From IMG/VR virus record IMGVR_UViG_3300021139_000002, positions 42,022 to 106,021 of that record: a stretch of DNA of 64,000 nucleotides; one strand, written 5' to 3'. The position numbers and the translations under genes were made by a program. Source of the stretch: a virus. The notes under the pieces are model-generated. The model had not been told where the DNA came from. It did no database searches and saw only the letters and a program-made list of their open reading frames with translations. Positions 6,702 through 61,500 of this stretch are shown in pieces (within the stretch, counting starts at the first letter, position 1; each line of letters starts with the position of its first letter).

Positions 6702-6747
6702 ATAACTTTGGTAAATATATACGCACTTATCGGAGCAAGCGTATATC

Positions 6748-7047
6748 ATGAGCAGACCAAAGCCAACCGTGTTATTAGAGATAACAAATAAGAAAACATA
6801 TAAAACAGAACAGGTTTTAGATGCAGAGGCCATTTGGGCTGTGTTTTACAAAGACAAGCCTATAAATTTGAAAACCAGTAGTATGTTAGGACAACAACTA
6901 GGTCCAAAATATAAAAAAGTCAGTTTTTCAAATGCCGGCCATGCACATAATCTTGCTGAAAAGTTGAACAAAATGTTTAACTCCGAAGACTTCTCTGTTT
7001 TTAAACTAACTACCGGCGAGAAGTTATTAAATGACTCAAAAGAGTGA
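6748..7047 (+). CDS. hypothetical phage protein
   Basis: 99-aa ORF with GGAG SD and TAAATA at 6712-6717. Confidence 0.8.
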   Translation: MSRPKPTVLLEITNKKTYKTEQVLDAEAIWAVFYKDKPINLKTSSMLGQQLGPKYKKVSFSNAGHAHNLAEKLNKMFNSEDFSVFKLTTGEKLLNDSKE

Positions 7048-24800: not shown

Positions 24801-27624
24801 ATGTTTCCCACCATGTTGGTTTTTCACTTAATCCTAACATCTCCCAAGGAGCTAGGTTAGGTTTATCTGTGTCGTACAACCAGCGTAACAATCCTTTATA
24901 AGATCCAGACACCGGTGTATCTAGACTAGAGATATATCCATTATAAAAATTCCAAGTCTTAGATTGTGCAGGATCAAATGTATTGTTTGAAACATAGTCA
25001 ATACTAAATTTTGCAGCCCATCTTACAAAGTCGCCATCTAATATACCACTGACTTCGTCTTTAGAATAATCTGTAGTTCTAAATTGTCCAGGAATAGCTG
25101 AGTCAATATTAAACAATTCAGGACGGTAAGTTGCCTTAATGTTATTGTAGACACGTTTTTCAAACTCTAAAATAATAGCATCTCTATAGTCGTTATAAGC
25201 AAGCATTATGCTGCCATCATGTCCTTGAATAACACGTTGTGGAACTACATAACTTGTATCCATAAAGATAGACGGAATGAACTTAGGATACAGGCCTAAT
25301 TTTGTAGGAGTTGGAGGAATGTAAGAACCAGTAGTATCGGTATAGTCGTTGACAACTAATACATCACCAATTGCTAATGGTGCTAAAATTTCAATACTAG
25401 TTGTAGCAGTATTGAATACATAATCTTGTCCATAGACTAATTGTGTTCCATTTAGATATGGGTATACTGCACGTAGACTTAAAGATGTTAAATCAAAATC
25501 GCTATCTAATGGAAAAGAATTATTGTTTAAGTTAGCAATAGTCCATGTTCTAACTTTTTCTGCTGTCCCAAAACCAACCATGTCAGATAGGTAATAAGAA
25601 TCTGCATTTATTTTATTTTGATTTAGATCAAATAATACTTGGTCAATTACTTCAGCAGGAGATGTTTGTTCGCTTACTGAAATAATGCTATTCAATAAAG
25701 ACAATTTAAATGTATTATAGCTATCTGCAGATTTTATAATTGCATCTACTAAATTGTGTTCTTTTTTCCCAATGAACATCTGTGCGAAAGAGATAGGGTT
25801 TTCGTTAGATATTAACCGTGTTCCTAAATCAGTGTAATCTGCTCTATCGCGTACTGGAGTGATATCAAATAGCGGCGGCAATCTATCAATCATAGATTGT
25901 ACATGTTCAGACAATTCGCTGATGGTAAATTCTGATACAAGGCCGTTTAATGGATTGTTGGTTAAACTTAATGGCTCTTCATAATAACTATATACACCTG
26001 TTGCTGTTGAAGATATTACAGGAATAGAATAATCTTGTGCCAAAGTCCAAGAGTTTTCATATTGACCGTCAATCTTAACATAAGAAATATTTGAAGAAAT
26101 AGTATATGTAGGTTTAGAAATCTGACTCACAACAATTGTATCAGTTGCTAAATTGTTTTCAAACAGAATACTACCTACGGTTTCAATATTTCTATATGCA
26201 ATAGGAAAGCCTAAATAGGTATCGTTTGCTCCTGTGCCTGGTGCATAACTAAAAATTTTGTTACCTATAAAGTTACTCAAATAATAATCTTTATCGCCGT
26301 AGCTGTGTCCATCTTGGTCAAATAAGTCAAATAATGGCGGTTGATTTAAAGTAGTTCTTTGTTGAGAAAATACCCAACCAGATCCATTATACCACCAGTC
26401 AGTGCTATTATTGTTATCGCCTAACAAAATAGTAATAGCAGCTCCGGTGCTGGGATTATGATCGTTAGCAGATTGTAATGTTAATGTACGGACTCCGTTA
26501 ATAACAACAAAATGTATTTGATAAATTTTTCCTTTAACGGCTGTATTCGTAGCGGCATTAAAAATAACACGCAAGCCTTCTTCTAATTCTACACCATCAA
26601 CATACACAGGAGTTGTAGAACCTTCAATAGAATTATAAGGATCTAATGTAGTTGTATCAAGCAAATCAACTGGAAATAATCCTGTTGTACCAAAATTAAA
26701 CAATTGGATATCTGCTTTAAATTCAATAATAGGACGTTGGGCTCTACCTGTAGAAAAATTAGGAATAACGCCGTTTAAAGTTGCACTAGTTCTAATAACA
26801 TCTTTGTGGACCCAACGGTTGTATCGAGACCAAGGATTTAAATCTGCACTGGCTCTGTTAATAGTAATGTATTCTTGATCTAAGATAGGTAGTTCTCTAT
26901 CGTTATCAAACGGTAAACTCTCAAAAGCTGAAGAGTCAAAGCCGTCTGGAGTAGGCGATAAGAAATTTTCAGAAATAAGTAGACTATCGTAAGGTACTAA
27001 TTTAATAGCTGTGCCTACACCTTCTACAAAAAAACTTTTGTCATAAAAAGTAGGGTTTACATTATTTCCACTAAACTCTAATAACATTCCGTTTGAAAGA
27101 TTTGTAGAAGTAGTTGTACCGTCCGGTAGCAACACATCAACAGAGGCAGTAGCGTGTCCTATTATGTTGTTAGCAACATCTAAATTTGCGGTAACAACTT
27201 CAAGAAGTTCTGGGCCAGATGGCATCCAGTAATAATCTTGATAATTTACTAACTTGTCCCAATCGATATGAGAATTGTATGAATAGAATTCTGTTCTAAA
27301 TAATCTATCTAAATTGTCTGTTGAGCCGCCCTTGGCTGCAATTTCGTTAATTAAATCGTCGTAACCTTGTGTGGTTTGAATGTTGCCTAAACTATCATAG
27401 GTTATAAGAGCAGGATCTAATTGATAAGGATTTCCGTTGCTGATATAGATATCAGCCGTAGAATTATATGTAGGTGTTTGTGTACTGCCTACGTATCCAC
27501 TTAATCTTTCTATCTGTGGTTTCTGTATTAATTGATCAAGTGTGCTCGATAAGAATTTATTATTTCTATCTGTTCTTAGGTATTCTGGTAATAAATTAAC
27601 CGAACTAATTTTGTTATTTGCCAT
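15841..27624 (-). CDS. giant (~3930 aa) baseplate wedge-associated structural protein
   Basis: Uninterrupted ORF directly after gp6; likely start 27624 (MANNKISSVNLLPEYL); YINEVKPYHTQIR motif; beta-propeller-like repeats (FGSTI, VGAP). Confidence 0.75.
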   Translation of the reverse strand: MANNKISSVNLLPEYLRTDRNNKFLSSTLDQLIQKPQIERLSGYVGSTQTPTYNSTADIYISNGNPYQLDPALITYDSLGNIQTTQGYDDLINEIAAKGGSTDNLDRLFRTEFYSYNSHIDWDKLVNYQDYYWMPSGPELLEVVTANLDVANNIIGHATASVDVLLPDGTTTSTNLSNGMLLEFSGNNVNPTFYDKSFFVEGVGTAIKLVPYDSLLISENFLSPTPDGFDSSAFESLPFDNDRELPILDQEYITINRASADLNPWSRYNRWVHKDVIRTSATLNGVIPNFSTGRAQRPIIEFKADIQLFNFGTTGLFPVDLLDTTTLDPYNSIEGSTTPVYVDGVELEEGLRVIFNAATNTAVKGKIYQIHFVVINGVRTLTLQSANDHNPSTGAAITILLGDNNNSTDWWYNGSGWVFSQQRTTLNQPPLFDLFDQDGHSYGDKDYYLSNFIGNKIFSYAPGTGANDTYLGFPIAYRNIETVGSILFENNLATDTIVVSQISKPTYTISSNISYVKIDGQYENSWTLAQDYSIPVISSTATGVYSYYEEPLSLTNNPLNGLVSEFTISELSEHVQSMIDRLPPLFDITPVRDRADYTDLGTRLISNENPISFAQMFIGKKEHNLVDAIIKSADSYNTFKLSLLNSIISVSEQTSPAEVIDQVLFDLNQNKINADSYYLSDMVGFGTAEKVRTWTIANLNNNSFPLDSDFDLTSLSLRAVYPYLNGTQLVYGQDYVFNTATTSIEILAPLAIGDVLVVNDYTDTTGSYIPPTPTKLGLYPKFIPSIFMDTSYVVPQRVIQGHDGSIMLAYNDYRDAIILEFEKRVYNNIKATYRPELFNIDSAIPGQFRTTDYSKDEVSGILDGDFVRWAAKFSIDYVSNNTFDPAQSKTWNFYNGYISSLDTPVSGSYKGLLRWLYDTDKPNLAPWEMLGLSEKPTWWETLYGAAPYTNANTALWTDLEAGSINGVVNSLYARPGLSNIIPVDAEGSLRNPTEFVTNITEETKRQSWEVGDLGPAETAWYRSSYYPFAIQRLLALTKPATYASKLYDVSRVIKNLSGQWISTTDDSFFKLSNLPIHGENQTLTSGYSVFVSEIGQARDKDYISQLRQDLSYANYNLFYKLNGFADKSTLQIVIDAYDPTSNAPGAILPLQDYTLKFNTSNPILSIAASGLIVQKLNNGYSVRGYDKQDAYFNVFKPLRNLGTPSITVGGVSEKYVVWTPSGTPATSGLSISDTVTASAAATGHFYQKGQYVQYGSKFYKVLVSHNSGSTFESSYFQSVPRLPTTGGATVQAAAAFDTSVTKVLYGTTYTNLQDVYDLIIGYGRWLESQGFIFDEYNADLGTTLDWNLTASEFLFWSTQAWATGSVLTLSPFANTLKYKGTNAVVDNLFDRFYEYSVLRADATAYPQSDLNISRTDGICTVATNPNTDGVYFVRLNLVQKEHVIVFNNYTIFNDVIFNPETGSRQRRVKLSGFRTANWAGDFASPGFVYDTGEVFDWTPNTAYYVGTAVRFNGNYYSANQNVERASAFDFTKWDILNEKPVAGLLPNFDYKIGQFEDFYSLDTDNFDAGQQKMAQHLTGYTPRPYLNNIFTDPVAQYKFYQGFIREKGTQNAINRLSKSSIQSLKGDISYTEEWAFRVGEFGSYPTYQELETPLIEGTFLENPQIINFVSELPTAHANDLIHYVLPSDLTITPNNYDPLATFATTSSIDSLLLQHSGYVRLSDVTATAYNENSLLDIANSSQLKDGDTIWLGFKQDGDWDVYRYTYYPVGVVGVYVSAPVSSITFTTQYPHGLSVGQLVGINQFNSQVDGIYRITSVDNARQFTVPSTLASITDAPLPTPGQLYVFESVRKTSFDNLPADNVLFRFSNGTKFWIDGSDTTNWEVYEKINNYNTTPTLSLSSHEQLGYAISKRKGDNVLVVGDPVNYNSLYYGICRLYEKADGSYQEIARWRIGTSYSYVPTGFGSTIVYDDTPFTGTRYGLVFVGAPLVTHGIVKISSINTNIFSEGVFAYVGNPDYNNSTNFGKFIFVERNTKNKLVLIGANNAVYAYEIKDNGGTISVTYLSKVASELNITALSGSEDATIIAIGNGDLVKIYNKSLTNIQTINIANTSINVSPDGTYMFVGNADGSYGQVSVYKNVNGTFVLDQTLYNPVAGQGMHFGSSMDITIGNDTLIVSATGINRTLNTTFDSSNMTFDGNITKIKGTEVGSGTIYVYYKKSARFVYSQELTDSYILTTHGNNFAKSIVVDDTEVIAGAPAIDNTSISSGFFVFDKIDTTTNSLSKIVEQDTFTDISPISRIAIIDTEKEKIINYLDLFDPLKGKIPGIAEQELTYKLISDPAIYSIGVAGTNNNTDKNWLDDHVGELWWDLSTAKYVWYEQGDLEYRKNNWGKLFPGATIDVYEWVSSTMLPSAWAAIADTPAGLAKGISGQPKFVDNSVISVKQVYDTITNTFSNVYYFWVKNKVTVPLHKDRRLSSYAVASAIADPSAYGLSFASIISKDAIMLSNVGNIPVGNTISINIAQDSSSSSVVTPRHTQWKLLQEGDAVNMPPLSLEQKLIDSLLGHDKFGNIVPDIALSERTRYGTSVRPRQTMFNDRHAALRNIIEFSNNVLINIPVTGKYSFKNLNAQEEIPNQYGNTYDNLVEDNASLTSIDTSGYRQAIINCTPNANGSIELVQIADAGYGYGTLNPVYSSTGTVIGYEGPTFTIANDLYETIFDNATTTFDDLRTRFLTRDVPNTYSSGFEMKTVVNEHGSIISASIIHPGNGFSSKFRLIARPQTVIVQSDDTYNGKWSQYEWDYVTYSWNRAHTQSYDTTLYWDYVDYASVDYNQYQIYTAVIGSPYELSSVSTVEGQYVKVNNGGDGNYIVLRKAADGVLGSYGDGYDLVYKQNGTIQFNSDIWDVSNSLLNWDNLNTYDQTLYDQTPDTELEYIIKALKNDLFINELKINWNLLFFKAVKYALTEQKLLDWAFKTSFINVTNTSGELYQPPVYKLNDSSFFEDYINEVKPYHTQIRNFTTEYSVLEPTYTDIIEQDRVSTIELKFDRTSYVGQSGGFEVVDTFIADGITSEFVLGWVPAFNKTGISVKINSVISLSSEWTIDYYEQPYNGYSKKFAKLVFVNNAPANNATITIKYKKSADILNATDRILAYYTATNGMIGLDLTVLMDGISYPGTLVDGQRFVNPYGGVYPYSNIEGGTWNADGRVSALGTNPEDITLSGELGFINTASGHAPEELLPGFAIDTLGINVYTQGPAQAPTIVTGYFDVSPSADLQYYPLPMLPVTVDSISVILNGTILECAPIMPGALSFEIDWVGQRLIIPPQVSSGKLSYSMVGVGGGTNNFGLIDSESVITTNSSVGIVSSGYLANIVKDVYVTVNGIPTSDYVLDVSANNRGPAVVTVNGLDSSQGNAVQAWFFTESHSNFNQIIDQQFVASSTSSMTTFTLNVEGDYIVEKIVNGVANRLLTSKNEYTIVGSTLTISVHLNPGDLIKVVTFIDTTGKMGVDIENFVGNPNRRFIMNRPVSNDIYMWVSIIHQNDTVSGLINGIDYILLDDNVTVQISDSWNISNLDTVEIISFKSPQYIDTVLGYRIFNDLLGHTTFTRLSKANTTYLTKPLAPDDTEIYVADATVLTAPTETTPGVVLINAERIEFNQITVASGGYKLDEITRGTLGTGVSPHLLYGSKVVDQGTLQVLGNPEAVSIQYIFTTATNSVYHISTSSYTSPVPGTTATIASAGIKLVDSLPYNDQLEVYYGGRQLRKSPIFVHDTTIAYDSIDESYIQGTTSDLSTQSAMLNDAYILVSSGQVWQYVGNRSTNVQYPGWVYTGLTELPQEFTVAHNNTQTIQLNIVVESNIELAIVKKSALSNTFNTVVSPGVTLPLWESSTTIAGQLKQFPTELPNSYYYEGDIVLRDQNGVPLTDENGSILTGRT

Positions 27625-27631
27625 ATTTCTC

Positions 27632-30600
27632 TTATCCAGCAATTAAGGTTGTATTCAATTGTGCGGCTGTGATAGCATCGATTACTGCAATATCTGATGC
27701 TCGGGCACCGCTTATAAAAATTTCATTACTTTGACATGTAACTTCGTATAAACTACCAAAGTTATTAACAACAGGAACAATGACAAAGTTTGTAATATCA
27801 GGAGTTAACAAATTCATGATATAAGTCGACAACTCACTAAAGTGGAAACTTTGTCCAAAATCCCAGTTTTCTAATGCAAAGAAATTATTAATACCTTCTA
27901 GTATTTTAGAAATAATCTCGTTGTCACTGATTGTACTAGAAGAACTCTTAACCGCTTTAAACTTAGCCTGTAAGTTAATATCGGCGGAGGTTCCAAATAA
28001 TACCTTATATGTAACTGGTTGATATATTATTTCATCACTAATTGATTTAATAGGATCAAGTATATTTGCATAGTTATTATCAAGACTTTGACTAGATGGT
28101 GGTAGTGGTTTGCTACCCGATCCTGTTAGTAACCAATTTCTAAAACTTGTATCGTAATCACTAGTAAGCATATAGACATCTATTAAATTACTCTTGCTAG
28201 GATCAATTCTGTATTCTTCTCCACTATTATGTTGGTAGTGAAAACTTAAATCAGCACGACCGGGGTATGCTACATAGTTACTGGCCAAGACAAATTCATT
28301 AAAAGAATCTACCGTCTTAACGGTATTTGTATCAACAAAATAGTAAAGGTATTCAGTATCTAATATGTTACTATAATGTCCTCTTGCCGCATTCTCGGAT
28401 GAAAAAACAACATATTGATCAGTACTAACTGGAGTTAAACTCATGCCATCAGTTGTAAACTCAAACACCGCATAACCGTCCGACGTTCCAAGGTCATTAG
28501 AACTTCCTACAATATTTGCAAAGATATCAGGGTCTACTAATTGTCCTACGGTGCCGCTATCTTGATGGTTATAAAAACTTACTTCGACTCTAGATGGATC
28601 AACATATCCGTCTACTTCTATAATAGGTCCATTAATTTGCCAAACATAATCAGAACCTAAAGATTCGTTAGTTCCAGTTTTTGTATTAATAGACAACACC
28701 GTAATTTTATCTTTAACTACAGAATTATTGGTATAGTCAAAATTAACATCATTAGGATCGCTGTAGAAACCTGTTTGATTTACACTTTGGAAAATAAAAG
28801 ATGTTGTTCTATATCTAACTTTATATTCAGCTCCAGTCCATGTAAATGCAACCATCCAACTTGAATCTTTGTTTGCGTTGGTAACATCTCCTTGATATTC
28901 AAAACTAAAATCATTTACTAGATCTAAGTTTGTATCTTCAATAATCATCCAAGATCTTAAAGAAGAATCAAATCGTAAACCAAAATTTCTTTGTGTTAGG
29001 CATAGGTTAACTAGATCATTTTCAAAGGTATATGACAAAGTGTTAACAAACGCAGGAACAATTTCAACAGGAATAGATCCTTGGCCAGGTCGACTTCCTA
29101 GAATAATAGGGCCGGTGCCATCGGATAAATTTCCTTGTCCAACATTTGAACCATCCCCTATTACTTGTAATACCGTAGCCCAAATATAATCAACGGTCTT
29201 GTTTGTTTGTTGAGGAACAATTTTTCCGTTTGGTAAGAAATATTGCTGTGCTCCAGACGATGTCTTAGGAGGAACAAATTTTATAATAGCACCAGCAGTG
29301 ATATATTGTAGTACAGAACTCGTATACGTACCTACACTTTGTGGAACATTAACATTTAATCTTCTATTTTTAGAATAGAAAAATCCTCGACCTTGACCAG
29401 TTACTACATTTGACGAATTCCACTCATATGTAGGATCAATTAAATCAGAATTTAATGTGATCGATGCCATTCCTCTATAATGATCTAAGTAAAAATTTAA
29501 GAAGTAGTTAGAATCAATTATAGGTTCCAATTGTTGTTTAACAACAGAAAAAATATCATTCCTAGAAGAGTATGTAAATGTAAAATTCTTTTCTGTATTA
29601 TCTTTATAAACAATACCGTCTATTCCAAATATATTTGTAGAACTATATTTTCCGCTCACATCACTTAATTCGAAATACTTGCTTACACCGCTAGATTCTC
29701 TGTTAACACTTTTTACTTTTAAGATATTACTGGTCAACGTCAACGGTGCAATATTATAATCCTCTCCTGTTACCATACGATTCTGTGTATAATATGTTTG
29801 AGGAGCGTTCTTCTGTATGCTGGCATTTGTTTCCGGACCAGAACTATTAGAAATTGTATATTGTAAAGAGAATGTCACGGTCAACACATGATTTTGACCG
29901 CTCTTATTAGCATACGGAATACTAACAACAATCCCTGACATTTGGTCAGGCTTGATAGAATATGTCATTCCATTACTTTGACGATAAAATAATTGAAAAT
30001 TACCTTTAGGTAAATTTCCAAAAGTACCGTCTGCAAAAGTTAAATCAATCTGATCGTTATCTCGACTGGTTACGCTATAAAGATTTCTAATTGTTTGATT
30101 TAAACTATTATAGATAACATTGTTGCCTACAAGCGCAGGAACTTTAGTCCAAGGTGCAGATGGGTAAGATCCGCTAGGATCTAACTGCCATAACCATACA
30201 TCAGTATCATTAATGTTGTTGATATTGATACCAATAATCTCGTTAGGTACAGGATTACTAATATTAAAACTAGTAACACCTATGCTACCCTGTTTGAATA
30301 AGGCAAAAAATCCTGTGTTAGCACTTCCTGAACCCTGATTATCATTTTGAAATATGACTGAGAATTGTTCAGCTGGTTTTGGTGCTGTCTCATAAACATA
30401 GGGTTGGCCGCTAAACGTAGCAGGCACAATTTCAAAATTCATAGGAGTACCGTTGATGTTTTTTAAAAAACTAAAAACAGGTACATCTTGGTTTGTTGTG
30501 TTTAATTGGTATTGTTCTGTTAGTATGCCGTTTAATGTATTACGATCATTTGGTTTACCAAAAATTGTTACGCTCGGCATAGCAGAATTAAAAATGTTTG

Positions 30601-39638: not shown

Positions 39639-40652
39639 ATGAGCCTATTTAAAAAGGTAGCATGTTTTACAGACATACATTTTGGACTCAAATCTAACTC
39701 AGCAACACACTTAAAAGATTGCGAGGAATTTGTAGATTGGTTTATTGAAACTGCAAAGAAAGAAGGTTGCGAAACTGCAATCTTCTTAGGAGACTGGAGT
39801 CACAATCGTAATAGTTTAAATCTGTTTACATTAGACTCTAGCCTACGTTGTTTGGAAAAACTAGGCGCAGCATTTGAACAATTTTTCTGGTTCCCAGGAA
39901 ATCACGACTTGTTCTACAAAGACAAGCGTGATATTCATAGCTCTGCATTTGGAAGACATATTCCAGGAGTCACCGTGGTCGAAGAAGTAACTACCATAGG
40001 TGATGTGACCTTAGTACCGTGGTTGGTAGGTGACGAATGGAAAAATATTAGCAAAGTAAAGAGCAAATACATGTTCGGACACTTTGAATTGCCCTTGTTC
40101 TACATGAACGCAATGGTACAGATGCCCGATCACGGTGAATTGCAGGCCAATCACTTTGTACATCAAGACTATGTGTTCAGCGGACACTTCCATAAACGTC
40201 AAAGTCGTGATAAGATTCATTATATAGGTAATGCATTTCCGCATAACTTTGCGGATACATGGGATGATGCTCGCGGCATGATGGTCATGGATTGGGGCGG
40301 CACACCAAAATACATTGACTGGGAAAATTGCCCTAAGTATAGAGTAATTAAATTATCAGAGCTTATTGATAAAAAAGATGCAATTATGAAAAGTAAGATG
40401 CATATCAAAGTTAATCTAGATATCGATATTAGTTTTGAAGAAGCAAACTTTATCAAAGAAACGTTTGTTGCAGATTATGACATACGAGAAATTAGTCTAA
40501 TTCAAGATAAGACTAATCTTGATGGAACTATCGACGACAACCCAGATGCTAAATTCGAATCTGTTGATCAAATTGTCACTGAGCAATTAGTCAATATCGA
40601 ATCTAAAGAATTTGAAAAAACAACTCTTCTAGAAATTTATAATAATCTATAA
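39639..40652 (+). CDS. recombination endonuclease subunit gp47 (Mre11/SbcD-like)
   Basis: TDIHFG, LGD, GNHD, GHFH metallophosphoesterase motifs. Confidence 0.92.
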   Translation: MSLFKKVACFTDIHFGLKSNSATHLKDCEEFVDWFIETAKKEGCETAIFLGDWSHNRNSLNLFTLDSSLRCLEKLGAAFEQFFWFPGNHDLFYKDKRDIHSSAFGRHIPGVTVVEEVTTIGDVTLVPWLVGDEWKNISKVKSKYMFGHFELPLFYMNAMVQMPDHGELQANHFVHQDYVFSGHFHKRQSRDKIHYIGNAFPHNFADTWDDARGMMVMDWGGTPKYIDWENCPKYRVIKLSELIDKKDAIMKSKMHIKVNLDIDISFEEANFIKETFVADYDIREISLIQDKTNLDGTIDDNPDAKFESVDQIVTEQLVNIESKEFEKTTLLEIYNNL

Positions 40653-42430
40653 TGTTTCAACTTAAAAATTTAACCGTTAAAAACTTCATGAGCGTTGGTG
40701 CTCAGACCCAGGCTGTTGACTTTGACAAAGAACATCTCACGTTGGTACTAGGTTCTAACTTAGATTTAGGTGGCGATGATACAGGTTCACGTAACGGTAC
40801 TGGCAAAACTACAATGATCAACGCATTGAGTTATGCTTTGTACGGGCAAGCCCTTACTAACATTAAAAAAGAAAACTTAATCAATAAGATTAACGGTAAA
40901 GCTATGTTAGTTACCGTAGAGTTTGAAAAGGGCGGAAACAAATATCGCATCGAACGCGGACGAAAACCCAACGTACTTAAATTGTTTGTCAACGATAATC
41001 AATTAAAGACTGAAGAAAAAGAAGACGAGAGTCAAGGTGACAGCCGAGAAACTCAAAAGGCTATTGAGGAAATGCTTGAAATGAGTCATACCATGTTCAA
41101 GCACCTTGTTGCATTGAATACGTATACTGAGCCATTCCTAAGTATGCGAGCAGCTGACCAACGTGAAGTTATTGAACAACTACTTGGCATTACTCTGTTG
41201 AGTACAAAGGCAGAAGCACTTAAAGTTCAAGTCAAAGAAACCAAGGATGCTATTACCGCAGAAGAATTTAAAATTGCAGGTATTAAAACTGCAAACGAAA
41301 ATGTACAAAAAAGCATTGATAGTTTGCACTTAAAAAGCAATGCTTGGGAAAACAAACAACAACAAGAGTTAGAAAACTTAGGTCGTGCTATTGTAAACTT
41401 AGAATCAGTTGATATCGAAGCAGAACTCAAAGCGCACTCTGCTCTGAAGTGGTGGGATGAAGAAAATACACGCATTAGAAATTTGAATAAACAGAAGTCT
41501 ACACTAGAAACAGCAGTTATTCAAGCAGAAAAAACTCTAAACAAGTACAAACGAGAGTTAGAAAGTCTAGCAAATAAAACTTGTCACGCCTGTGAACAAC
41601 AACTTCATGATCACAAACATGAAGAAATGACTGCTACCGCTACACAGCATCTAAAAGAAGCAGAAGATTACTTTCAAAAAGTAAGCACTCAGCTTACCCA
41701 AATTATATATGATGTAGGTGACGGTACATTGCCAGACAAGCCTACTACCTTTTATGATACAGAAGCAGAAGCTCTTGGACATAAAAACAATTTAGCCGGA
41801 TTAGAGAAATCGTTAATTTCAAAAGCAGAAGAAAAAAATCCGTATGCTGAACAAATTGAAGAATTAAAGAAAACTGCTATCCAAGAAATCAATTGGGAAG
41901 GTATCAACACGTTAACAAAGTACAAAGACCATCAGGAGTTTTTGCATAAACTATTAACCAATAAAGATAGTTTCATTCGTAAAAAGATTATTGATCAAAA
42001 TTTAGCATACTTAAACAAGCGTCTAACTTATTACATTGACAAATTAGGACTTCCTCATCAAGTTGTATTCCAGAACGACTTAACCGTTATGATTACACAA
42101 CTAGGACAGGATCTAGATTTTGATAACTTATCACGTGGTGAGCGCAACCGTTTAATTCTTTCTATGAGTTTTGCATTCCGCGATGTATGGGAAGGCCTGT
42201 ATCAAAGTATTAATTTGTTGTTTATTGATGAACTTGTAGATGCAGGCATGGATAGTGCAGGTGTTGAAAGTGCATTAGGTGTATTGAAGAAAATGGCTCG
42301 TGAAAGAAACAAGAACATTTATCTTATTTCACACAAAGATGAATTAGTAGGCCGTGTTAATAATGTATTAAGAGTTGTTAAAGAAAACGGTTTTACCAGT
42401 TATAGCAACGATATAGAGTATGTTAGTTAA
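40652..42430 (+). CDS. recombination ATPase subunit gp46 (Rad50/SbcC-like)
   Basis: NGTGKTT Walker A, CHAC zinc hook, LSRGE signature, FIDE Walker B, ISH. Confidence 0.92.
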   Translation: MFQLKNLTVKNFMSVGAQTQAVDFDKEHLTLVLGSNLDLGGDDTGSRNGTGKTTMINALSYALYGQALTNIKKENLINKINGKAMLVTVEFEKGGNKYRIERGRKPNVLKLFVNDNQLKTEEKEDESQGDSRETQKAIEEMLEMSHTMFKHLVALNTYTEPFLSMRAADQREVIEQLLGITLLSTKAEALKVQVKETKDAITAEEFKIAGIKTANENVQKSIDSLHLKSNAWENKQQQELENLGRAIVNLESVDIEAELKAHSALKWWDEENTRIRNLNKQKSTLETAVIQAEKTLNKYKRELESLANKTCHACEQQLHDHKHEEMTATATQHLKEAEDYFQKVSTQLTQIIYDVGDGTLPDKPTTFYDTEAEALGHKNNLAGLEKSLISKAEEKNPYAEQIEELKKTAIQEINWEGINTLTKYKDHQEFLHKLLTNKDSFIRKKIIDQNLAYLNKRLTYYIDKLGLPHQVVFQNDLTVMITQLGQDLDFDNLSRGERNRLILSMSFAFRDVWEGLYQSINLLFIDELVDAGMDSAGVESALGVLKKMARERNKNIYLISHKDELVGRVNNVLRVVKENGFTSYSNDIEYVS

Positions 42431-42723: not shown

Positions 42724-43158
42724 ATGTCCTGGTTCTATGAAAATAAAGAAATAACAGCATTGCCTGAAGATTGTGTAGGATTTGTATATCTTATAACAAA
42801 CACAATTGATGGACGTATGTATATAGGCAAAAAATTAGCAAAATTTAGTAAAACGACCTACAAAACTATTAAGTTGAAGAACGGCAACAAAAAGAAAAAG
42901 AAAATTAGAACTAAGATTGACAGCGACTGGCAGGAATATTACGGGTCCAGCACTGAACTAACGGCGGATATCGCTAAACTAGGCACACAAAATTTTAAAA
43001 GAGAAATACTTTATTATTGCAAATCTAAGGCAGAATGTAGTTACATTGAGGCAAGAGAACAATTTACCCGCAAAGTATTAGAATCAAACGAATATTATAA
43101 CGGACAGATTTCTGTTCGTGTCCATGGCTCCCATATAAAAAACAAATTAAACGGTTAA
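42724..43158 (+). CDS. GIY-YIG endonuclease (small, single domain; DenA/Seg-like)
   Basis: GFVYLI.N...GRMYIGKK, YYGSS, F.REIL, conserved Glu (YIEAREQF), YYN. Confidence 0.85.
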   Translation: MSWFYENKEITALPEDCVGFVYLITNTIDGRMYIGKKLAKFSKTTYKTIKLKNGNKKKKKIRTKIDSDWQEYYGSSTELTADIAKLGTQNFKREILYYCKSKAECSYIEAREQFTRKVLESNEYYNGQISVRVHGSHIKNKLNG

Positions 43159-43159
43159 T

Positions 43160-43588
43160 AAGCAAGCACAAGCTAACATCGTGTGCCCTAAACCTGGATC
43201 TCGGATCGCAGGGATGGAAACCTCTCGCCGTTAAGAGTACTCAATCACTACCCGAAAGGATGAAGATCGCTAATAAGACCTGCGATTTGGTTGTTTGAAA
43301 ATAGATAAATAGGCAAAATGAAGGGTTAGAGACGCCCTACGTTTGTATATATGTTAGCGTATGTATGCAAACCGCCGCTGGAATAAGACGCTGCTCGAGG
43401 TACAGGCCAACCGCCTCTGTAATGCAGTAACGCTAAGTGACATATGTTCGACTCGAATAATGTTTCTTTGCCCTTCCTGGGCAAAGTGTGACTGAACGAT
43501 CTGAATAATATTTAAACTACTTCGTAGTATCAGTATGAAATCAATTGCTTCGAGTGCGAGCGAAGAAGCAAACGAACGCAGTTCGTTT
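43160..43588 (+). ncRNA. putative large structured non-coding RNA (family not recognised)
   Basis: No ORF of 60 aa or more, more GC-rich than flanks, about ten hairpins/stems, several with G-U pairs on the + strand. Confidence 0.55.
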
Positions 43589-43595
43589 ATAAATA
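43588..43595 (+). promoter_or_regulatory. T4-type late promoter
   Basis: TATAAATA upstream of 43625; the phage encodes a gp55-like sigma. Confidence 0.75.
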
Positions 43596-43624
43596 AACAA
43601 TAATAAATTTAGGAATTTCCTGTT

Positions 43625-44257
43625 ATGCGTATCAATGAATTAATATTAGAACAACAACTTGATGAACTTAATCTTAAAGGGTTAGGAACAGGTTTAGGTA
43701 AGGCTGCTGGTGCAGTAGCCGGAGGTGTAGTTCAAGGTGCTAAAAATATGTGGGCTGGTGCAAAACAGGGATACGATGCAGCTCAACAAGCATTAAAACC
43801 AGATGGTACGCCAGCTACATCTGCTCCTACACAACAACCAAATACTTCTACTGCTCCTGCTAGCCCACAACAACCAGCTGGTGGAGAAGTTGCATCTAAT
43901 AACTTACTTCAAAGAGCACAGCAAGGAACTACTCAAGATCTTAATGCACAGCCAGCTACTCAAGCACCTACAGCTGGTACAACTCCTCAACAAGCAGCCG
44001 CACAGGATCAACAGGCAAAAATAGGAGTAGGACAGATCAATAAGATTATTCCTACTTTAAGAACACGTGATTTACAAAGTGTTAAGAAAAATGTTGATGC
44101 AACTATTGCTAAAAAGTCTAAACAACCAGCAGCTCCTGTTCAACCGCCAGCTCCGACACAAGCTGAATTAGATGCTGACCATGCAAGAATGGCCAGCGGA
44201 ACAAATGAAAGTAAAGTTATTCAATTCCGCAGTAAGTTTTTAGGGATAGATATTTAA
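43625..44257 (+). CDS. late low-complexity Gln/Ala/Pro-rich protein, possible internal head protein
   Basis: Late promoter; N-terminal I/L-x-E motifs (INE, ILE, LDE) resembling gp21 cleavage sites. Confidence 0.6.
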   Translation: MRINELILEQQLDELNLKGLGTGLGKAAGAVAGGVVQGAKNMWAGAKQGYDAAQQALKPDGTPATSAPTQQPNTSTAPASPQQPAGGEVASNNLLQRAQQGTTQDLNAQPATQAPTAGTTPQQAAAQDQQAKIGVGQINKIIPTLRTRDLQSVKKNVDATIAKKSKQPAAPVQPPAPTQAELDADHARMASGTNESKVIQFRSKFLGIDI

Positions 44258-52756: not shown

Positions 52757-53938
52757 ATGTCACAACTATTAAATGAAAGATGGTCAGAGACCAAAGAAAC
52801 TCTGCTTGAAGGCCTACAAGGTACACGTCGTTCTTCTATGGCAGTTTGCTTAGAAAACACACGTAAGTACTTGGCTGAAAGCGCCACAGCTGGTGCAACA
52901 AGCGCAGGTAACGTAGCAACACTTAACCGTGTTATTCTTCCAGTTATCCGCCGTGTTATGCCTACGGTTATTGCTAACGAGATCATCGGTGTTCAACCTA
53001 TGACTGGTCCAGTTGGTCAAATCCATACACTACGTGTACGTTATGCAGATAACGGAAGCGATGTTGTAGCTGGTGAAGAAGCATTGAGCCCATTCAAGAT
53101 CGCTCAAGCATATTCTGGTAACGACGGTACAGGTGGTGCATATAAAGCTGCTGCTACAAGTACTTTAGAAGGTACACCAGGTAAGCGTATGAGCATCCAA
53201 ATCTTGAAAGCTCCAGTCGAAGCTAAGTCTCGTAAACTAAGCGCTCGTTGGACTTTCGAGGCTGCACAAGATGCACAAGCTCAACAAGGTATTGATATCG
53301 AAGCAGAAATCATGGCCGCTTTAGCTCAAGAAATTACAGCTGAAATCGACCAAGAAATCCTAGCTTCTCTACGTAACTTAGCAACCGTAGAAGAAACATA
53401 TGACCAGTCATTAGTTTCTGGTACAGCTACATTCGTCGGTGACGAACACGCTGCTCTAGCTATCCAAATCAACCGTGTAAGCAACTTGATTGCTCAACGT
53501 ACACGTCGTGGTTCTGGTAACTGGGCTGTTGTTTCTAACCAAGCATTGACAATTCTTCAATCTGCTACAACTAGTGCGTTTGCTCGTACTACAGAAGGCA
53601 CATTTGAAGCTCCAACAAACACCAAGTTTGTTGGTACATTGAACGGTGCTATGCGTGTTTATGTAGATGCATATCTACCAGACACAGGATACGACAACAA
53701 CCAAGTTCTAGTTGGATACAAAGGTTCTAGCGAAGCTGATGCGGCTGCGTTCTATTGCCCATACATTCCTCTAATGTCTTCTGGTGTTGTTCTAGATCCA
53801 GCAACATTTGAACCAGTAGTTGGTTTCTTAACTCGTTACGGATACGTCGAGTTAAGCAACACAGCATCTAGCTTAGGCAATGCTGCTGACTACCTAGGTA
53901 AAGTTGCTATCACTAGCGCAAACGTAAGCTTCAAGTAA
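52757..53938 (+). CDS. major capsid protein gp23
   Basis: RRVMP..IA.EIIGVQPM.GP, SRKL.ARWT.EAAQD, EI.AEIDQEI, FYCPYIPL, TRYG. Confidence 0.97.
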   Translation: MSQLLNERWSETKETLLEGLQGTRRSSMAVCLENTRKYLAESATAGATSAGNVATLNRVILPVIRRVMPTVIANEIIGVQPMTGPVGQIHTLRVRYADNGSDVVAGEEALSPFKIAQAYSGNDGTGGAYKAAATSTLEGTPGKRMSIQILKAPVEAKSRKLSARWTFEAAQDAQAQQGIDIEAEIMAALAQEITAEIDQEILASLRNLATVEETYDQSLVSGTATFVGDEHAALAIQINRVSNLIAQRTRRGSGNWAVVSNQALTILQSATTSAFARTTEGTFEAPTNTKFVGTLNGAMRVYVDAYLPDTGYDNNQVLVGYKGSSEADAAAFYCPYIPLMSSGVVLDPATFEPVVGFLTRYGYVELSNTASSLGNAADYLGKVAITSANVSFK

Positions 53939-53965: not shown

Positions 53966-53990
53966 AAAAACGCCCTTCGGGGCGTTTTTT
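53966..53990 (+). terminator. intrinsic terminator after gp23
   Basis: AAAAACGCCC-TTCG-GGGCGTTTTTT. Confidence 0.9.
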
Positions 53991-54066
53991 GTTAAATACT
54001 ATTCTATGTATTATGCAGTTCCATCTGCGTAGACCTAGAACGTCATATATTTTAAGGAGAAACAAA

Positions 54067-54987
54067 ATGGGACGTCCAATTAAAGCCAAATTTTTTGGTA
54101 ACTTAAACAACGAACAATTTAAAAATGTTGGTGTCAACAGCGGTATCGGTGGTGAAGGTGTTGCAGGTGTAAGTATTAGCAACACTGGTACAGGATATTC
54201 GAGAGGTGCTTTTATAACTTTTTCAGCACCAGACGAGCCAACAGGTGTAACAGCCCAAGGCCATCCAGTGTTTACAACTGACGGTGCTGGCCGTTTTGGT
54301 ATTACTAGCATTGTTATTGATACAGCAGGTAGCGGATATAATTCAGCACCTACAATTACCGTAACAACTGCAACAAGAGTTAATAGTGTTGCTAACAGCG
54401 GTATCGGTGGTCTTAACACATTTACGGTTACAACAGCGACTGGTATTGCAATCGGTATGACTATTTCTGGTGGTTCTACCGGTATTAACGGTAAAGTTAC
54501 AGGAGTTAGCGGTAATATTATTACAAGTACCGTAAACAACAGCGGTACATGGACTAACGCAACTAACTTATTCTTTGCTGACTATGGTTACGGATTTGCT
54601 GATACCGTTACTTTAACTTCAAGTCAAAAGTATTCTGCAATCAAAGGTAATGCTTATATTCCAACAGCCGCAGGCGGTTCTAGCGCAGTTGAATACGACA
54701 TTATCAAACAAGAAGCAAGTCATCGCTATCTTGTAAAAACAGCACAAGGTGTTGGTCAATGCCGTTTGGTATCAACAAGCACAATGACTTCAGGTCAAAT
54801 GAACATCATTGCTACTGATGCTAATGGTAACACATATTATGTTACAAAATTAACTGCTCACAAAGCTCTGTTAACTCGTCAAACACAAAGCGGTTCAAAT
54901 GCTTGGTTATATACAACTGGCCAAACAGCTAAATGGACTATCGGTTCAGCCGCAAGTGGTGTGGTAAGTATTACACATACAATCTAA
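54067..54987 (+). CDS. late virion protein (head decoration/fibre-like)
   Basis: Start 54067 with AAGGAG SD, TAAATA at 53993; Gly/Thr-rich with I...G.GY...P repeats. Confidence 0.7.
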   Translation: MGRPIKAKFFGNLNNEQFKNVGVNSGIGGEGVAGVSISNTGTGYSRGAFITFSAPDEPTGVTAQGHPVFTTDGAGRFGITSIVIDTAGSGYNSAPTITVTTATRVNSVANSGIGGLNTFTVTTATGIAIGMTISGGSTGINGKVTGVSGNIITSTVNNSGTWTNATNLFFADYGYGFADTVTLTSSQKYSAIKGNAYIPTAAGGSSAVEYDIIKQEASHRYLVKTAQGVGQCRLVSTSTMTSGQMNIIATDANGNTYYVTKLTAHKALLTRQTQSGSNAWLYTTGQTAKWTIGSAASGVVSITHTI

Positions 54988-55589: not shown

Positions 55590-58500
55590 ATGACGGGAAT
55601 AAGAAAATCAGGTACACGATCATTAGCACCAACTAATGGAGCAATACAATCAAGCAGTGGTGTACCATCTTTATCACAGAAAGATAACGGCGTTACTTTA
55701 ATCCTATCGTCGGCAACTCAAGTTGGCGGATACTTACAATTGGTGAACAAAACTTCACCTAACCCTGTAATTGTTTTTAAAAATAATACACAGAACGTTG
55801 GAAATACTAACAATCCTACCGCGACTGACCCTGTTTCCATTGACCAGACAATATTCAGTAACACGGCAGAACGTCAATTAGCCGGTGCATATTTTTCTGG
55901 TGGGGTAGGTATTGAGAAAGATTTAGCGGTAGGTGGATTTATCTACGGTCGTATTGCGTCTGCAAACTCTGCCACCACAAGTAGTAATATTGTAGTTCTT
56001 AAAACAAATGAAAATGCCACTTACTATCCATTGATGACTGATAGTTCGGGTATTATTCAACAAGGTGCTAACTTATATGCTGACATTTTAAATCAAGATG
56101 CTACAGCAGGCGGTTTTAAATATAATCCGTATCTTGGAAAATTAACAACTGAAAGAATCCATGTTGACGGTACAGATAATTCTACCGGCATAACATCTGG
56201 CGCATTAGTAGTTGATGGTGGTGTAGGTATTGCATATGACCTTAACATAGGTGGCAACATATTACCCGCCGCAGCAGATGCTACAACAATCGGTGCTGAC
56301 GGTCTTGAATGGGCTGATGCATACCTTAATAAAGTATACTCAAAATTTGTTGGTAGTACAGCAAGCAACCTAACACTTGCACCGGGCGCAGGATTAACTG
56401 ATGTGTTTGGTGATATACGTGTACGTGGTCAAAATCCAATTGGTACTGCTCCTATCATTACAAACACATTGTATGTTACTATGGACGGCGACGATACTAA
56501 CGACGGTCGTGCTCAAGATGCTAGCCGTGCTTGCCGTACTATTGGTGGTGCAATGAAGTCACCTTACTATCAACCAGGAACACAAATCCTTGTAAGCCCT
56601 GGTAGATATTTAGAAAACAATCCTTTAGAAATGAAGCCATATACTTCTGTTAGAGGCAGTGACATTCGTACAACATTTATTGAACCTATTAACAAGACAC
56701 AAGATTTATTCCACGTAAACAGCGGATGCTACTTAAACTACATGAACTTCTTAAACGGACGTAGTGGTCGTTTAGAAGGTGCATATGATCAAAGATTTAA
56801 CCGTGGTGCATATTGTGCAACATTTCCTCCACAAACTGGAGACAATAGAATTGACGTATTCCAATCTCCGTACATTCAAAACTGCACAAACCAAAGTGGT
56901 CCGTGGTTAAAAGATGGAACAATGTTCTTACCGAACAACACGGTACAAGTTCCTGCGGCAGTTGGTATAGCGTCTTGGCCTGCTAATACAACAACCATTG
57001 TTGTTTCTATGTCAACTGGTACATTAAGTATCGGACAAAGTATCAACGTTGGTCAACAAAATCCAGGATTCTTTAATGCTCGTACATTGTTGTTGGCCAA
57101 CAAACCGTTCATTCAAAGTCAAACGGTCGCATGGGTTGATGCAACATTTAACAGCGGATCCTTTACATACGATCAGGCTAAATGTGCTCGAGACACTGGT
57201 CTAATTGTTGATGCAATTGCAACAGATATGTTGTACAATAGCACCAGCGATAGTATGTTTGCAGGTATACAATACTGGAATCAAGATACTTATACTGGAA
57301 ATATTTCTTCAGAGATAACAGCAACCATTGCGGCTATTAATCATCTTAAAGGAATTGTATTAAGTGAGATAAGCAGTGGTAATCAATCAGCAGTTACTAC
57401 ATTGTTTAACGACATAACAGGTATTTTAACATCTGGTACTTCCGGAATAACTGATCAAATAGTTTACGGCGGCCTGCCTACAACTAATGCAACAACCGTA
57501 AACGATTATAATACATTACAAACAAATAGATCTTCTATACAAGACAGCGTTATTTCTTGGATCAACTCAACATATCCTGGATTAGATTATAATCAAGATA
57601 CCTGCCGAAGAGATACTGGTTTTATTCTAGATAGTGTATGTTTTGATTTGTTGCATGGCGGTAATGTTCAAAGTATCAAGAGCGGTGTATATTACTACGG
57701 ATACAGCAACGTAAACACGTTAGCTGGAACTAATGAGGTTCCTGCGACTACAGCGGCTTACAATTTTATCAAGAGTATTATTCCTAACATCGTCGAAGGT
57801 AACCAATTATTAAAAACTTATCAGTTCAGTGTAAGTCAAGTTACAAACTTGCCTGCTGGTACAGCGCATGAAGTTACTACGCTACAAAATAACATTGATG
57901 TCATAACTGGTATTATTAGAAATGGTCCTGACTATGCTGGACCAAAAACACCTATCAACTTAACTGAGAATACTTCTGTTGGTGTTCTTAACGCTTACAA
58001 TTTATTAAAAGCTAACCTTAATTTTATCAAGGCAGAAGTTGTTGCATTCATTAATCAAACAATGAATAATTTTGATTATAACAGACAACTTTGCTACAGA
58101 GATGCAGGTATTATTGTAGAGAACATGGCTTACGACATGACATTTGGTGGAAACCAAAAGAGTGTTGAAAGTGGTTTAGCATACTACCGCGGCGTAACAA
58201 GTGTTATTGCTGGACAAGAAACACAGACAATAGGTGCAATTGATTATATTGGATACCTATGCAAGCTAATTGTACAAAATCAAACATGTCCAATTTTAAT
58301 TCCTCCTGCAAATATCCCTACGGCTACACAGGTAATTAACACAGCACTAACTGGTGGCGATATTGTATTGCCTTCAATTGGCAAGTTGTTTAATATTACA
58401 ACTAACATTATTGAGAATGGACCAAGTGCGGCACCTGACATCTTTATTAGTACAGGTCCTGATGCCGCATTTGTCAGCGCAGAAGTATTGTTACATGCTA

Positions 58501-61500
58501 ATCGTACATTTATTCAAGAAAACGTTGTTAACTATATCAACTATAACTTATGCAATCCTCCTAAAGCACTTCCTTATAATCAGATTAAGTGTCGTAGAGA
58601 TGCAGGAGTTATTCTTGATAGTGTAGCAATTGACTTGTTATTCTCAACTCCTACTAACACACAAGCTACCTTCTCTGGATTACAATATTTTAATCAAGGC
58701 GGCTATACTGGACAAATTTCTCAAGAAATTAATCCTACAATTGATGCAGTAACATACCTAAGAGATTTAAGTGTTAAGGTTGTACAAAATATTACTACAG
58801 CCACTGATGCCTTAATCGGTGTTACTCGTTATAGCAATGGTGTTCAGACAACATCTAGCAACTATGCAAGTAGTGCAGAAGTTGCTACGCTTCGCAGTGA
58901 ATTTGGAATCATCTTAACTATACTTAACGGACAGACAACTGGATGGACTGATCAAATTGTTCCAAACGGCGGAACTGCAAGTGATTTAACCAGTGTTCAA
59001 AATACCGTAAATCTACTGCAAGAAAATAAAACTTACATGGCGCAAGAAGTTACTGCTTATGTAAATGCTAATAATCCAGGATTTACATATTCAACAAGTA
59101 CATGTCAGCGAGATGTAGGATATATTATTGATAGTTTATGTTTTGATTTACTATACGGCGGTAACCGTCAAGCAATTCAATCTGGTCTAAGTTATTACAC
59201 CAGTGCAATTGATACCACGGTAATTCCTAACGAAACTACTGCTACGGTTGATGCATTTACATTTATGGGCAACGTGGCTTCTTCATTAATACAAGGTATT
59301 CCGTACACTCCTTTACAGACCAAAGTTAAACCTGTATTAACGTTACCTGCTAGTGATAGTGTAAACGCCGGAGTTGTAACAACAATTATCAGCACAATTA
59401 CAAATATTGTTGCAAATGGTCCTAGTGTAGCAGCTACACTTGTTCCTGTAACACTATCTCGTTCTACTGCAAGTGCTACAATATCTGCATTTGAAATATT
59501 AACTGCTAACCGTAACTTTATTGTAGAAGAAACTATTTCTTACTTAGACCAAACTTACAATGCTGGATCTTTCAACTATAATCAAGAATTATGTTTTAGA
59601 GATACAGGATTAATTATTGATGCAGTAAGTCAAGATATATTACTTGGCGGCAATCGCAAGTCTATTGAAGCAGGTTTAAGTTACTGGAATCAAGGTTATA
59701 ACTATGTTACAGGCCAAGAGACAACTACTACAGCGGCTATTAATTATGCTAGAGATTTAGCACTACAAGTAATTGCCAATGTGTCAGTTACTCCTGTTAC
59801 TGGTACGGTGGCAACACAAGTTATTAATCCGTTCTACCAATACGGTAGCGACTATATGCCGCAACAGGCCGTTGCTCGTAACTTTAATATTATAACTAAT
59901 ATCATCGAAAACGGTCCAAGCGTAACTCCGCCAGTTTACATAGGAGGCGGAATTTATCCGTTGACAGGTCCTAACGGTGATATTGTAACGGTTGCACCTA
60001 CCGTTACTTACATCAATAAAGTCTCTACAGGAACTTATGTAGTTGGTTTGAACACAAGTACTATTGGATTTGGTGATAATGCAACTATATACTTTGGAAA
60101 AACTTACGTTTATCCTTTACAAGATCCGCAAGTCGAAGCATTGAGCTTACAATTAACTGGCAACACAAGCACTTGGAACATTCGTAAAGTTGATCCAATC
60201 GGCGCAATGGGTGGAGCATTAGTTGACGGTGCTGTAGTTAGCGATCGTAGTCCGATTCAATCGTTTGTTTTTGATGCGTTCACACAATTGAACCAAGGCG
60301 GTATTGGTGTTAAAGTTACCAACAACGGATACGCACAGCTAGTTTCTGTGTTCACAATCTTCTGTTCAGTTGGTGTACAATGTGATAACGGCGGTATTGC
60401 TTCTATCACAAACTCCAATTGTAACTTTGGTGATATCTCGTTGTTGGCCAAAGGCTATGGTACTAGATCGTTTAGCGGTACGGTATTCAACCCTGCATAT
60501 CGTTCATACCCATTTAGCCCACAGGGCACTGATGGTAACGGAAATCCGTTACCATACTTAGACCAATTCTACCCAACAGGCTATTGGCCAAACAACGGTG
60601 GTAAAGTTGAAATATTTGTACCAGACGATGCTAATAGACCACATATTGGTCAGGTTATGGAAATTATTCCTCCAGAAGGACATGTTAACGAACAGGGTTT
60701 CTCTGGATTCTTAAACACGCAACCTAGCACCAGCACAATTACAACAGGTACAATTAACTTATCGAGTATTGATACCACAGATGTATTTGTAGGAAATACC
60801 GTTTATATTCGAGATCAATTTGGTCGTCAATGGGACGATAATGGTGTATGGTATGCAGCCACAGGAACCGTAGTTGCCGATGTTAACTATAACAGCATCA
60901 GTTTGAATAAATCGTTAACCAGTGGCGGCGGTGATCCTCTAAATCCAACATACTTTACAATATACTTCTGCGGAAATAGTTACTACACCGTACAAACAAG
61001 TCAGATTGCAGATCAACCTTATGCACCTAACACTAATATCTTAAGTGCAAATAGTAATTCTTCCTATCAAGGACCTGCAACAAGTCAAATTTCTGCACAC
61101 ATCTCTGCTGTAAATTATCTACAAACCGTTGTTGACAAAGTTATTGCTAATATTCCTGTAACAAAAACTTCAGGAAATACTAGCACACAAGTAATTAATG
61201 CAACCGTTGTCGGTGGAGCAGCCGCACAACCATTCATTGACTTGCGATTCAAGTACATGACTGACATTATTGGCGCCGCAAACATTACCGCCGCTGAAGC
61301 GGTAGTTCCACAAAGTCAAATTACAACTTCAGGTACGGTTCCGACAGGTGCAGGTAATGCAGTTGTGTTGATAACCAGTAACATCGATTTCATTGCACAA
61401 GAAGTAGCCGCTTATGTTGCAATAAATCTTGCAGGCGGGTTAGGTGACTATAACACTGACAAATGTAATCGAGATATTAAATTAATTTTACAACAACTAA

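Follow-up and report, generated by a model that had tools for sequence, protein, structure and literature searches.

The gene-free stretch behind a small GIY-YIG nuclease gene in an uncultured T4-like phage is, on the evidence of sequence and covariation, the gene for a full-length RNA of the Polynucleobacter-1 family. It occupies about 43140-43590 on the + strand of the window (the whole 64,000-nucleotide stretch of DNA analysed here, taken from a 106-kb IMG/VR record estimated to be ~30% complete) and consists of a 136-nt 5′ domain and an uncatalogued 3′ domain of ~300 nt. That this is a real, structured + strand RNA of that family we regard as nearly certain. The phage RNA (~440 nt) is a member of Rfam family RF01718 and not a new class; its true extent and its most striking features, among them two short boxes that remain identical to each other while their sequence drifts, are uncatalogued. 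The best explanation overall, to which we assign a probability of roughly 0.6, is that this full-length family member would be a folded mobile-element RNA whose boxes are read by an external partner.

A known RNA motif in a T4-like phage

A cmscan search of Rfam 15 matched 43161-43296 (+) to RF01718 across the entire model (positions 1-141 of 141; 114.6 bits vs a gathering score of 37, E = 4e-24), and no other Rfam family matched within 43000-43800, even at E up to 10. The Polynucleobacter-1 motif was first described by Weinberg et al. (2010, Genome Biol 11:R31; PMC2864571), who assigned it no function, reported no example in any purified phage and noted that its 3′ half was not always detected; the raw alignment of these authors reached ~43390 in a few truncated sequences. 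According to the supplement of that paper (PMC2864571), most examples lie downstream of GOS11034 genes, with possible homology to PSSM2_218 of P-SSM2. The gene upstream of the RNA in our window fits this usual context of RF01718: the window nuclease is 36% identical to PSSM2_218 (E = 3e-21), and both are now assigned to PF19835 (SegE_GIY-YIG). Since PSSM2_218 is itself a SegE_GIY-YIG protein, the gene-RNA neighbourhood has been on record since 2010, with the gene then unrecognised as a nuclease. The original prediction of a "possibly new" RNA therefore falls for the first 136 nt, whereas the remaining ~300 nt match no family.

The phage RNA thus shares with Polynucleobacter-1 the whole 141-position model, its six helices, the type of habitat and the upstream gene family. 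It differs in that the Rfam model covers only the first third; beyond this the phage RNA, here on the contig of a T4-like phage, continues for ~300 nt that include the twin boxes, two pseudoknots and a final hairpin. We found no description of the full-length RNA, its pseudoknots or its twin boxes in the searchable literature.

In the window, the neighbourhood of the RNA begins with SbcCD-like gp47/gp46 (39639-42430), followed by an 86-aa ORF and the SegE-type GIY-YIG nuclease gene (42724-43158, +; PF19835, 115 bits). The encoded protein of 144 aa consists of the catalytic domain only, with the Pfam match spanning residues 3-129. From its stop codon to the next ATG at 43625 there are only chance ORFs of at most 52 aa, in keeping with the original view of this stretch as non-coding; that it is the longest such stretch of the window stands only against the one other large gap with which it was compared (6499-7031), which has ORFs of 69 and 99 aa inside. 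GC content is 0.41-0.45 in the RNA gap vs 0.30-0.36 in its flanks. The ATG at 43625 opens a 210-aa ORF of no known family (43625-44257), and the gene at this place differs between relatives; beyond it come a T4 baseplate gene of opposite orientation and portal gp20. Elsewhere in the window, a second Rfam RNA, freshwater-2 (RF02980), is found at 53993-54069 (+) with 51.8 bits (cut-off 49.9). The gp23 major capsid gene (52757-53938) ends 55 nt before it, and it coincides with the start of the following ORF (53989-54987), which belongs to no Pfam family. The window also holds two very large ORFs, of 3933 aa (15841-27642, -) and 2113 aa (55590-61931, +).

Extent and strand of the RNA

A motif scan followed by nhmmer identified ~80 IMG/VR contigs homologous to the whole of 43140-43597, well beyond the first 136 nt. 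The counts of covariation come from MAFFT alignments of related sequences, which also served in part to derive the structure: in alignment A1 (61 distinct sequences, MAFFT; structure from mutual information and inspection), the consensus structure comprises 93 pairs, with 92.1% of cells paired vs 36-44% when the 3′ partners were slid by 1-3 columns, and 69 of the 93 pairs changed on both sides. The covariation score was 0.46 vs 0.07-0.09 for the slid controls, and none of 500 shuffles reached the observed values.

At the paired positions of A1, 332 cells are G-U and 90 are A-C, and in single-sequence folds compared with shuffles z was -2.4 for the + strand against -0.5 for the - strand. The excess of G-U cells and the better + strand fold indicate that the element acts as + strand RNA, which bears out the large structured RNA of the original prediction, including its argument from G-U pairs.

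Architecture of the 5′ and 3′ domains

The RNA is preceded by a conserved 5′ flank (43140-43160, +; AGGCA..AARCRGU in relatives), visible in the alignment, which here overlaps the last nuclease codons and persists even where nuclease gene and RNA are ~1 kb apart. Pairing of this flank (CGGU/CAGU) with ACCGCC/ACUGCC showed no consistent covariation.

Helices 1-6 of the RF01718 domain (43161-43296, +) are 80-100% paired in the 61 relatives, with changes on both sides in 22 of 33 pairs. They comprise P1 (43166-70/82-86), P2 (43194-200/204-211), P3 (43220-25/34-38), P4 (43242-46/89-93), P5 with its GAAA loop (43248-53/58-62) and P6 (43265-70/82-87), all on the + strand. P1 is the GCACA/TGTGC stem (43166-86) that had been picked out from the letters alone, and it covaries. 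By contrast, the long-range stem proposed between CGGATCGCAGG and CCTGCGATTTG (43202-12 with 43279-89) does not hold: its pairs break without compensation, and its arms covary with local partners instead, in P2 (43194-211) and P6 (43265-70 with 43282-87). That pairing is an artefact of GAUCGC occurring twice. Nor is the duplicated AATAAGAC conserved in relatives. As a separate observation, P5 (window 43250-43261) has two forms whose features change in concert: C51/U61 goes with the GAAA tetraloop, the form found here, and U51/C61 with a UUUACA loop. One A-C opposition is retained in either form.

The 3′ domain opens with a conserved single-stranded linker, GUUUGAA ... AGGCAAAAUGA (43297-43321, +), of invariant or near-invariant columns. 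Hairpin P7 (43322-43338, +) has double changes in 4 of 4 pairs and is 75% paired on the MAFFT alignment. The long hairpin P8 (43341-43372, +) has compensatory changes in 12 of 12 pairs. Both had been foreseen, P7 as AGGGT/GCCCT and P8 as a 13-bp stem with three G-U pairs. The loop of P8 (43354-60) supplies the 5′ strand of pseudoknot PK1, which pairs with 43430-36 (+) through seven pairs that are 96.9% paired and all double-changed. A second pseudoknot, PK2 (+), joins 43377-81 to 43407-11 in the loop of P10 (97% paired; three pairs double-changed). P9 (43390-94/43424-28, +) encloses P10 (43396-400/43414-19, +), whose loop holds the invariant block GGUACnGG...ACCGCC. Of the two nested stems originally placed at 43390-428, the outer GCTGC/GCAGT covaries, whereas the inner TACAG/CTGTA presents a C-U mismatch at 43404/43418 in 43 of 61 sequences and clashes both with the covarying helix P10 (43398/43416, AU in 41 and UA in 19) and with PK2.

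Twin box 1 (G-ACUC-GAAUAAU-G, 43450-43462, +) and twin box 2 (G-AUCU-GAAUAAU-A, 43498-43510, +) follow, on either side of hairpin P12 (43466-43486, +; 93% paired, four pairs double-changed). P12 is the predicted stem CTTTGCCC/GGGCAAAG, which covaries. So do the stems ACTAC/GTAGT, where the length of the region varies, TTGCTTC/GAAGCAA and AAACGAAC/GTTCGTTT, which brings the predicted stems borne out by covariation to eight. After box 2 come the small hairpin P14 (43516-43528, +), with a UUCG-type loop in most relatives and likewise in a region of variable length, and hairpin P15 (43547-43569, +), with an internal loop and a GNRA tetraloop, GCGA, at 43556-59; helices 15-17 covary. The last hairpin, P16 (43571-43587, +; 92-93% paired, 6 of 7 pairs double-changed), is the probable 3′ end of the RNA. 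A consensus scan did not call it as an intrinsic terminator, and the 8 bases that follow the stem include only 3 T. Conservation stops at 43597, right after a TATAAATA box (43589-43596, +), which, going by T4 biology, would be a T4-type late-promoter box for the variable downstream gene at 43625-44257. A scan of the + strand found no sigma-70-like promoter site for the RNA.

One further set of contacts involves P12. Position 43384 covaries identically, not complementarily, with 43483, and both the linker AAAGA (43384-88) and the 3′ strand of P12 can pair with its 5′ strand (43465-69). The pairing of 43384-88 with 43465-69, with 74% of cells paired over 7 positions and some compensation, could represent either a third knot or a pairing that competes with P12; two strands sharing one third strand shows how identical covariation can arise. 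A helix closing the region of box 1 and P12 (43445-49 with 43494-98) was rejected as not general, being 46-72% paired per position.

Twin boxes that change together

The twin boxes lie 48 nt apart, are unpaired in the consensus structure and covary with each other identically rather than complementarily at five positions. Each contains a 7-nt word (43455-61 in box 1, 43503-09 in box 2), which is GAAUAAU here and GGAUAAU, AGAUAAU, GCAUAAU, GGAUGAU, GGAUGAA and others in relatives. The two boxes of one RNA carry the same word in 60 of 61 sequences, compared with a mean of 9 and a maximum of 19 upon random re-pairing, and a tree from which the boxes were left out requires at least 22 changes of the word. 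The constant parts beside the words stay different (ACUC vs AUCU), so local gene conversion is unlikely to account for this identity. The simplest reading is selection for the identity of the two boxes.

The same arrangement extends beyond the aligned phage sequences. Bacterial copies of the RNA carry an AACUC-word and an AAUCU-word, with words such as AGCGAAA, AGAGAAA, GGAGAAA and AUCGAA. (the last incomplete). In a second phage type, "type B", the word is ACAUGAA and the 5′ domain differs, matching no Rfam family. Type B RNAs (L158:7985-8470 and L164:8513-8975, also L183, L185, L195, L204 and L209) occupy the same slot, after the GIY-YIG gene and an ORF of 92-105 aa, and end in the same tail as the main type, with twin boxes, GNRA hairpin, final hairpin and TATAAATA. 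With this tail present in bacterial and type B copies alike, the box-bearing part is the most widely shared module of the RNA. A single contig of Polynucleobacter sp. MWH-HuK1 (NZ_JACVPP010000001.1) carries two copies (L127 and L148) with the words AGCGAAA and AGAGAAA; two differing words within one genome make a single host-wide reader unlikely and favour an element-specific partner.

No such partner was found inside the RNA, where no column of the 61-sequence alignment pairs with the five variable positions. A U-rich site at ~43290, suggested by a per-sequence search for Watson-Crick and G-U pairing, was rejected, being invariant and fitting the words of other sequences equally well. In flanking DNA, the reverse complement of the word showed no positional peak. 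The target search covered related loci and the 106-kb piece of a genome that is ~30% complete. Within 0.55-1.3 Mb of loci and the 106-kb piece, a locus's own word, its complement and inverted repeats were in no excess over the words of other loci, and an extended partner able to match both boxes (complement + RRR + U) occurred ~6 times in 1.3 Mb, about as expected by chance, and not at all in the 106 kb. Several known kinds of short site were dropped by eye on account of the bacterial words (AGCGAAA and the like) or of words lacking GGA: CsrA-type GGA sites, DnaA boxes, box C/D and anticodon-loop mimicry, and likewise sense-plus-stop codon pairs and gene-60-type take-off and landing codons.

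Neighbours of the RNA in phages and bacterial islands

To describe the phage context, we took the 80 closest relatives chosen by gp46 similarity alone. A GIY-YIG gene followed by a twin-box RNA was found by profile search in 69 of 69 relatives with enough DNA (five matched in the tail only), and in L164, which the profile missed, the same order was read by eye, additional to the 69. The rest of the sample consists of L185 (an unread gap of ~520 nt), L188 (cut inside the nuclease gene) and eight loci that were too short. The adjacency noticed in the window is thus constant in this phage clade, where no RNA-only allele was seen; within one syntenic clade, it can be plain inheritance. The ORFs on either side of the RNA are complete, and the one downstream is unrelated and differs between relatives. 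In four phage loci, an unrelated ORF of 266-334 aa separates the nuclease gene from the RNA. These inserted ORFs (L069:529-1533, -; L064:5687-6487, -; also in L058 and L037) belong to no Pfam family, and the conserved 5′ flank of the RNA is retained.

The RNA is also carried by 27 bacterial loci, none of which has a GIY-YIG homologue nearby; 10 of the 10 scanned exceed the Rfam cut-off. In these loci no same-strand gene lies upstream. A divergent DUF6641 gene is found ~140 nt upstream of the RNA, a 188-aa tyrosine recombinase that is likewise a catalytic domain only starts ~850 nt or more downstream of the RNA start, and a full-size integrase is often near. DUF6641 is always divergent (L140:1571-2038, -; L146:4663-5106, -; and 20 more bacterial loci). 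Its AlphaFold model (pLDDT 80) shows a long helix, a small sheet and two helices, and a comparison with the PDB gave no sequence match and no fold match (best Z 5.3, generic helices). Neither a DUF6641 gene nor a tyrosine recombinase gene occurs in the 106 kb of this phage. Together, these loci suggest that the RNA is carried by mobile elements, namely T4-like phages and small genomic islands in freshwater Burkholderiales, including cultured strains such as Polynucleobacter asymbioticus QLW-P1DMWA-1 and Limnohabitans sp. DCL3. A blastn search with this RNA and the type B RNA, of limited sensitivity, found no cultured phage with the RNA among 50,697 phage records.

Possible functions

We consider most likely a trans-acting RNA of mobile elements with an element-specific partner for its boxes. 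Such an RNA would work as a folded RNA in its own right, neither as DNA nor as the leader of a particular gene, and would act in trans while being carried by mobile elements; its two boxes would be read through base pairing, both with a single nucleic acid sequence that is external and specific to the element. The variable downstream gene, the inserted ORFs in four loci and the divergent orientation of DUF6641 argue that the RNA is independent of its neighbouring genes. Because the boxes stay identical while the word drifts, no column inside the RNA is complementary to them and one genome holds two words, external, element-specific pairing is the most likely way in which they are read. Taken as a whole, a trans-acting RNA whose boxes base-pair with one external element-specific sequence has, in our estimate, about even odds. 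A protein may instead read the boxes, or they may take part in an intramolecular non-Watson-Crick contact.

The best placed of the alternatives, although improbable, is a decoy or sponge, in which a stable RNA would titrate a host factor or a defence nuclease and the boxes would be bait sites under arms-race pressure. Its presence in phages and islands alike, its very stable, knotted fold and its exposed, duplicated and drifting boxes would all suit such a role, but two islands in one genome differ in their words, which tells against one reader for the whole host, there is no known host factor, and the case is purely inferential.

Somewhat less probable is a cis-acting part of the nuclease mRNA, a 3′ UTR with a role in stabilising or processing the message or, by binding the nuclease, in autoregulation. 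The RNA begins at the stop codon, its conserved 5′ flank overlaps the last codons, and the sigma-70-like scan found no separate promoter on the + strand, so that in phages the RNA may be no more than the 3′ portion of the nuclease transcript. However, the bacterial copies lack an upstream same-strand gene, another ORF comes between gene and RNA in four phage loci, members of the nuclease family occur elsewhere without the RNA, and 440 nt with two pseudoknots and invariant loops go far beyond the needs of 3′ end protection.

The original prediction also offered a nuclease-associated RNP or guide, and we consider it unlikely that the RNA is a cofactor or guide of the minimal GIY-YIG nuclease (in the islands, of the mini tyrosine recombinase), with boxes that pair with DNA and aim an enzyme lacking a DNA-binding domain. 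The idea draws on a nuclease and a recombinase that are both reduced to the catalytic domain, on the constant adjacency of gene and RNA in the gp46-anchored relatives, on the bacterial RNA lying ~850 nt upstream of the recombinase and on words that are variable and element-specific. Yet the nuclease family is present in 478 cultured phage records, and in the four inspected (Melnitz, phiN3, ACP17 and S-SRM01) only 0-149 nt follow the nuclease gene, with no RF01718 match, while the 27 bacterial copies have the RNA and no such nuclease. The mutual dependence of enzyme and RNA that marks a generic RNA-guided system is thus lacking, each occurring without the other. With gp46 as the phylogenetic baseline, the association of nuclease columns with the word is no stronger than that of gp46 columns, and inheritance can explain adjacency within one clade. 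A Lys-rich stretch of the nuclease, originally noted as suited to nucleic-acid binding, recurs in part in the homologue from Melnitz, where the RNA is absent. Neither 1.3 Mb of loci nor the 106-kb piece yielded a complementary or inverted-repeat target, and seven nucleotides provide very little specificity. Slimmer still are the chances of a version in which the boxes are guide segments and the RNA would be the DNA-recognition module of both the GIY-YIG nuclease and the 188-aa recombinase, its words pairing with two half-sites or target copies. If the guide reading were true, this would be a new kind of RNA-programmed homing or integration system.

A DNA-level element, whether replication origin, packaging signal or recombination site, is very improbable. 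Tyrosine recombinases require identical overlap sequences, and a recombinase gene is near the bacterial copies, which would allow the boxes to be two matching recombination cores. The origin or packaging element raised at the outset is nevertheless disfavoured by the strand-specific G-U excess and by pseudoknot covariation, which makes sense only for a folding single strand; moreover, there is no recombinase in 106 kb of this phage, and the 48-nt deletion expected from recombination between the boxes is absent in all aligned relatives. Least credible is a self-templating RNA with the boxes as terminal repeats of a ~48-nt template on which a polymerase re-aligns, in the manner of telomerase RNA or DRT2-type rolling copying. 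Self-templating RNAs are marked by identical direct repeats on either side of a structured segment, but neither a reverse transcriptase nor another candidate polymerase is a neighbour of the RNA in phages or islands, indels alter the distance between the boxes, and no tandem copies of the unit were seen.

Comparison with known systems and significance

The RNA resembles several known systems in part. As with the free-standing GIY-YIG homing endonuclease genes of the T4 seg type, such as segB in the tRNA cluster, a small GIY-YIG gene adjoins a conserved structured-RNA gene in a T4-like genome; unlike them, the nuclease here is fixed and syntenic in all relatives rather than patchy, with a divergence about that of gp46. 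With GOLLD, ROOL and HEARO/omega RNAs it shares the character of a large, multi-domain, pseudoknotted orphan RNA on mobile DNA, and with HEARO also the adjoining nuclease gene, but no Rfam match to any of them appeared, even at E up to 10. HEARO/omega guides are located where a transposon ends, but here neither an element end nor a target came to light; the neighbour is a 144-aa GIY-YIG domain, with no IscB or TnpB gene. Group I introns likewise gave no Rfam match in 43000-43800 at E up to 10, and there is no split gene, the flanking ORFs being complete. The resemblance to IS110 bridge RNAs lies in a structured RNA, in the small recombinase that neighbours it in bacteria and in two short variable read-out segments. 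The differences are that the enzyme here is a tyrosine recombinase or a GIY-YIG nuclease and not DEDD/Tnp, that the two segments are identical to each other instead of matching two different DNAs, and that no target or donor match was found, leaving a likeness by analogy only.

More generally, the orphan motif of 2010 turns out to be the head of a larger, doubly knotted RNA that uncultured T4-like phages of fresh water and the mobile islands of abundant lake bacteria commonly carry. The tail of this RNA bears a rare evolutionary signature, two short sequences kept identical, not complementary, through at least 22 changes, which points to a sequence-reading function. If what reads the boxes is a nucleic acid target of the neighbouring minimal enzymes, this would be a new RNA-programmed system; if not, the RNA would still be among the larger structured phage RNAs without a known role. 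Island copies in cultured Polynucleobacter and Limnohabitans make its function testable at the bench.
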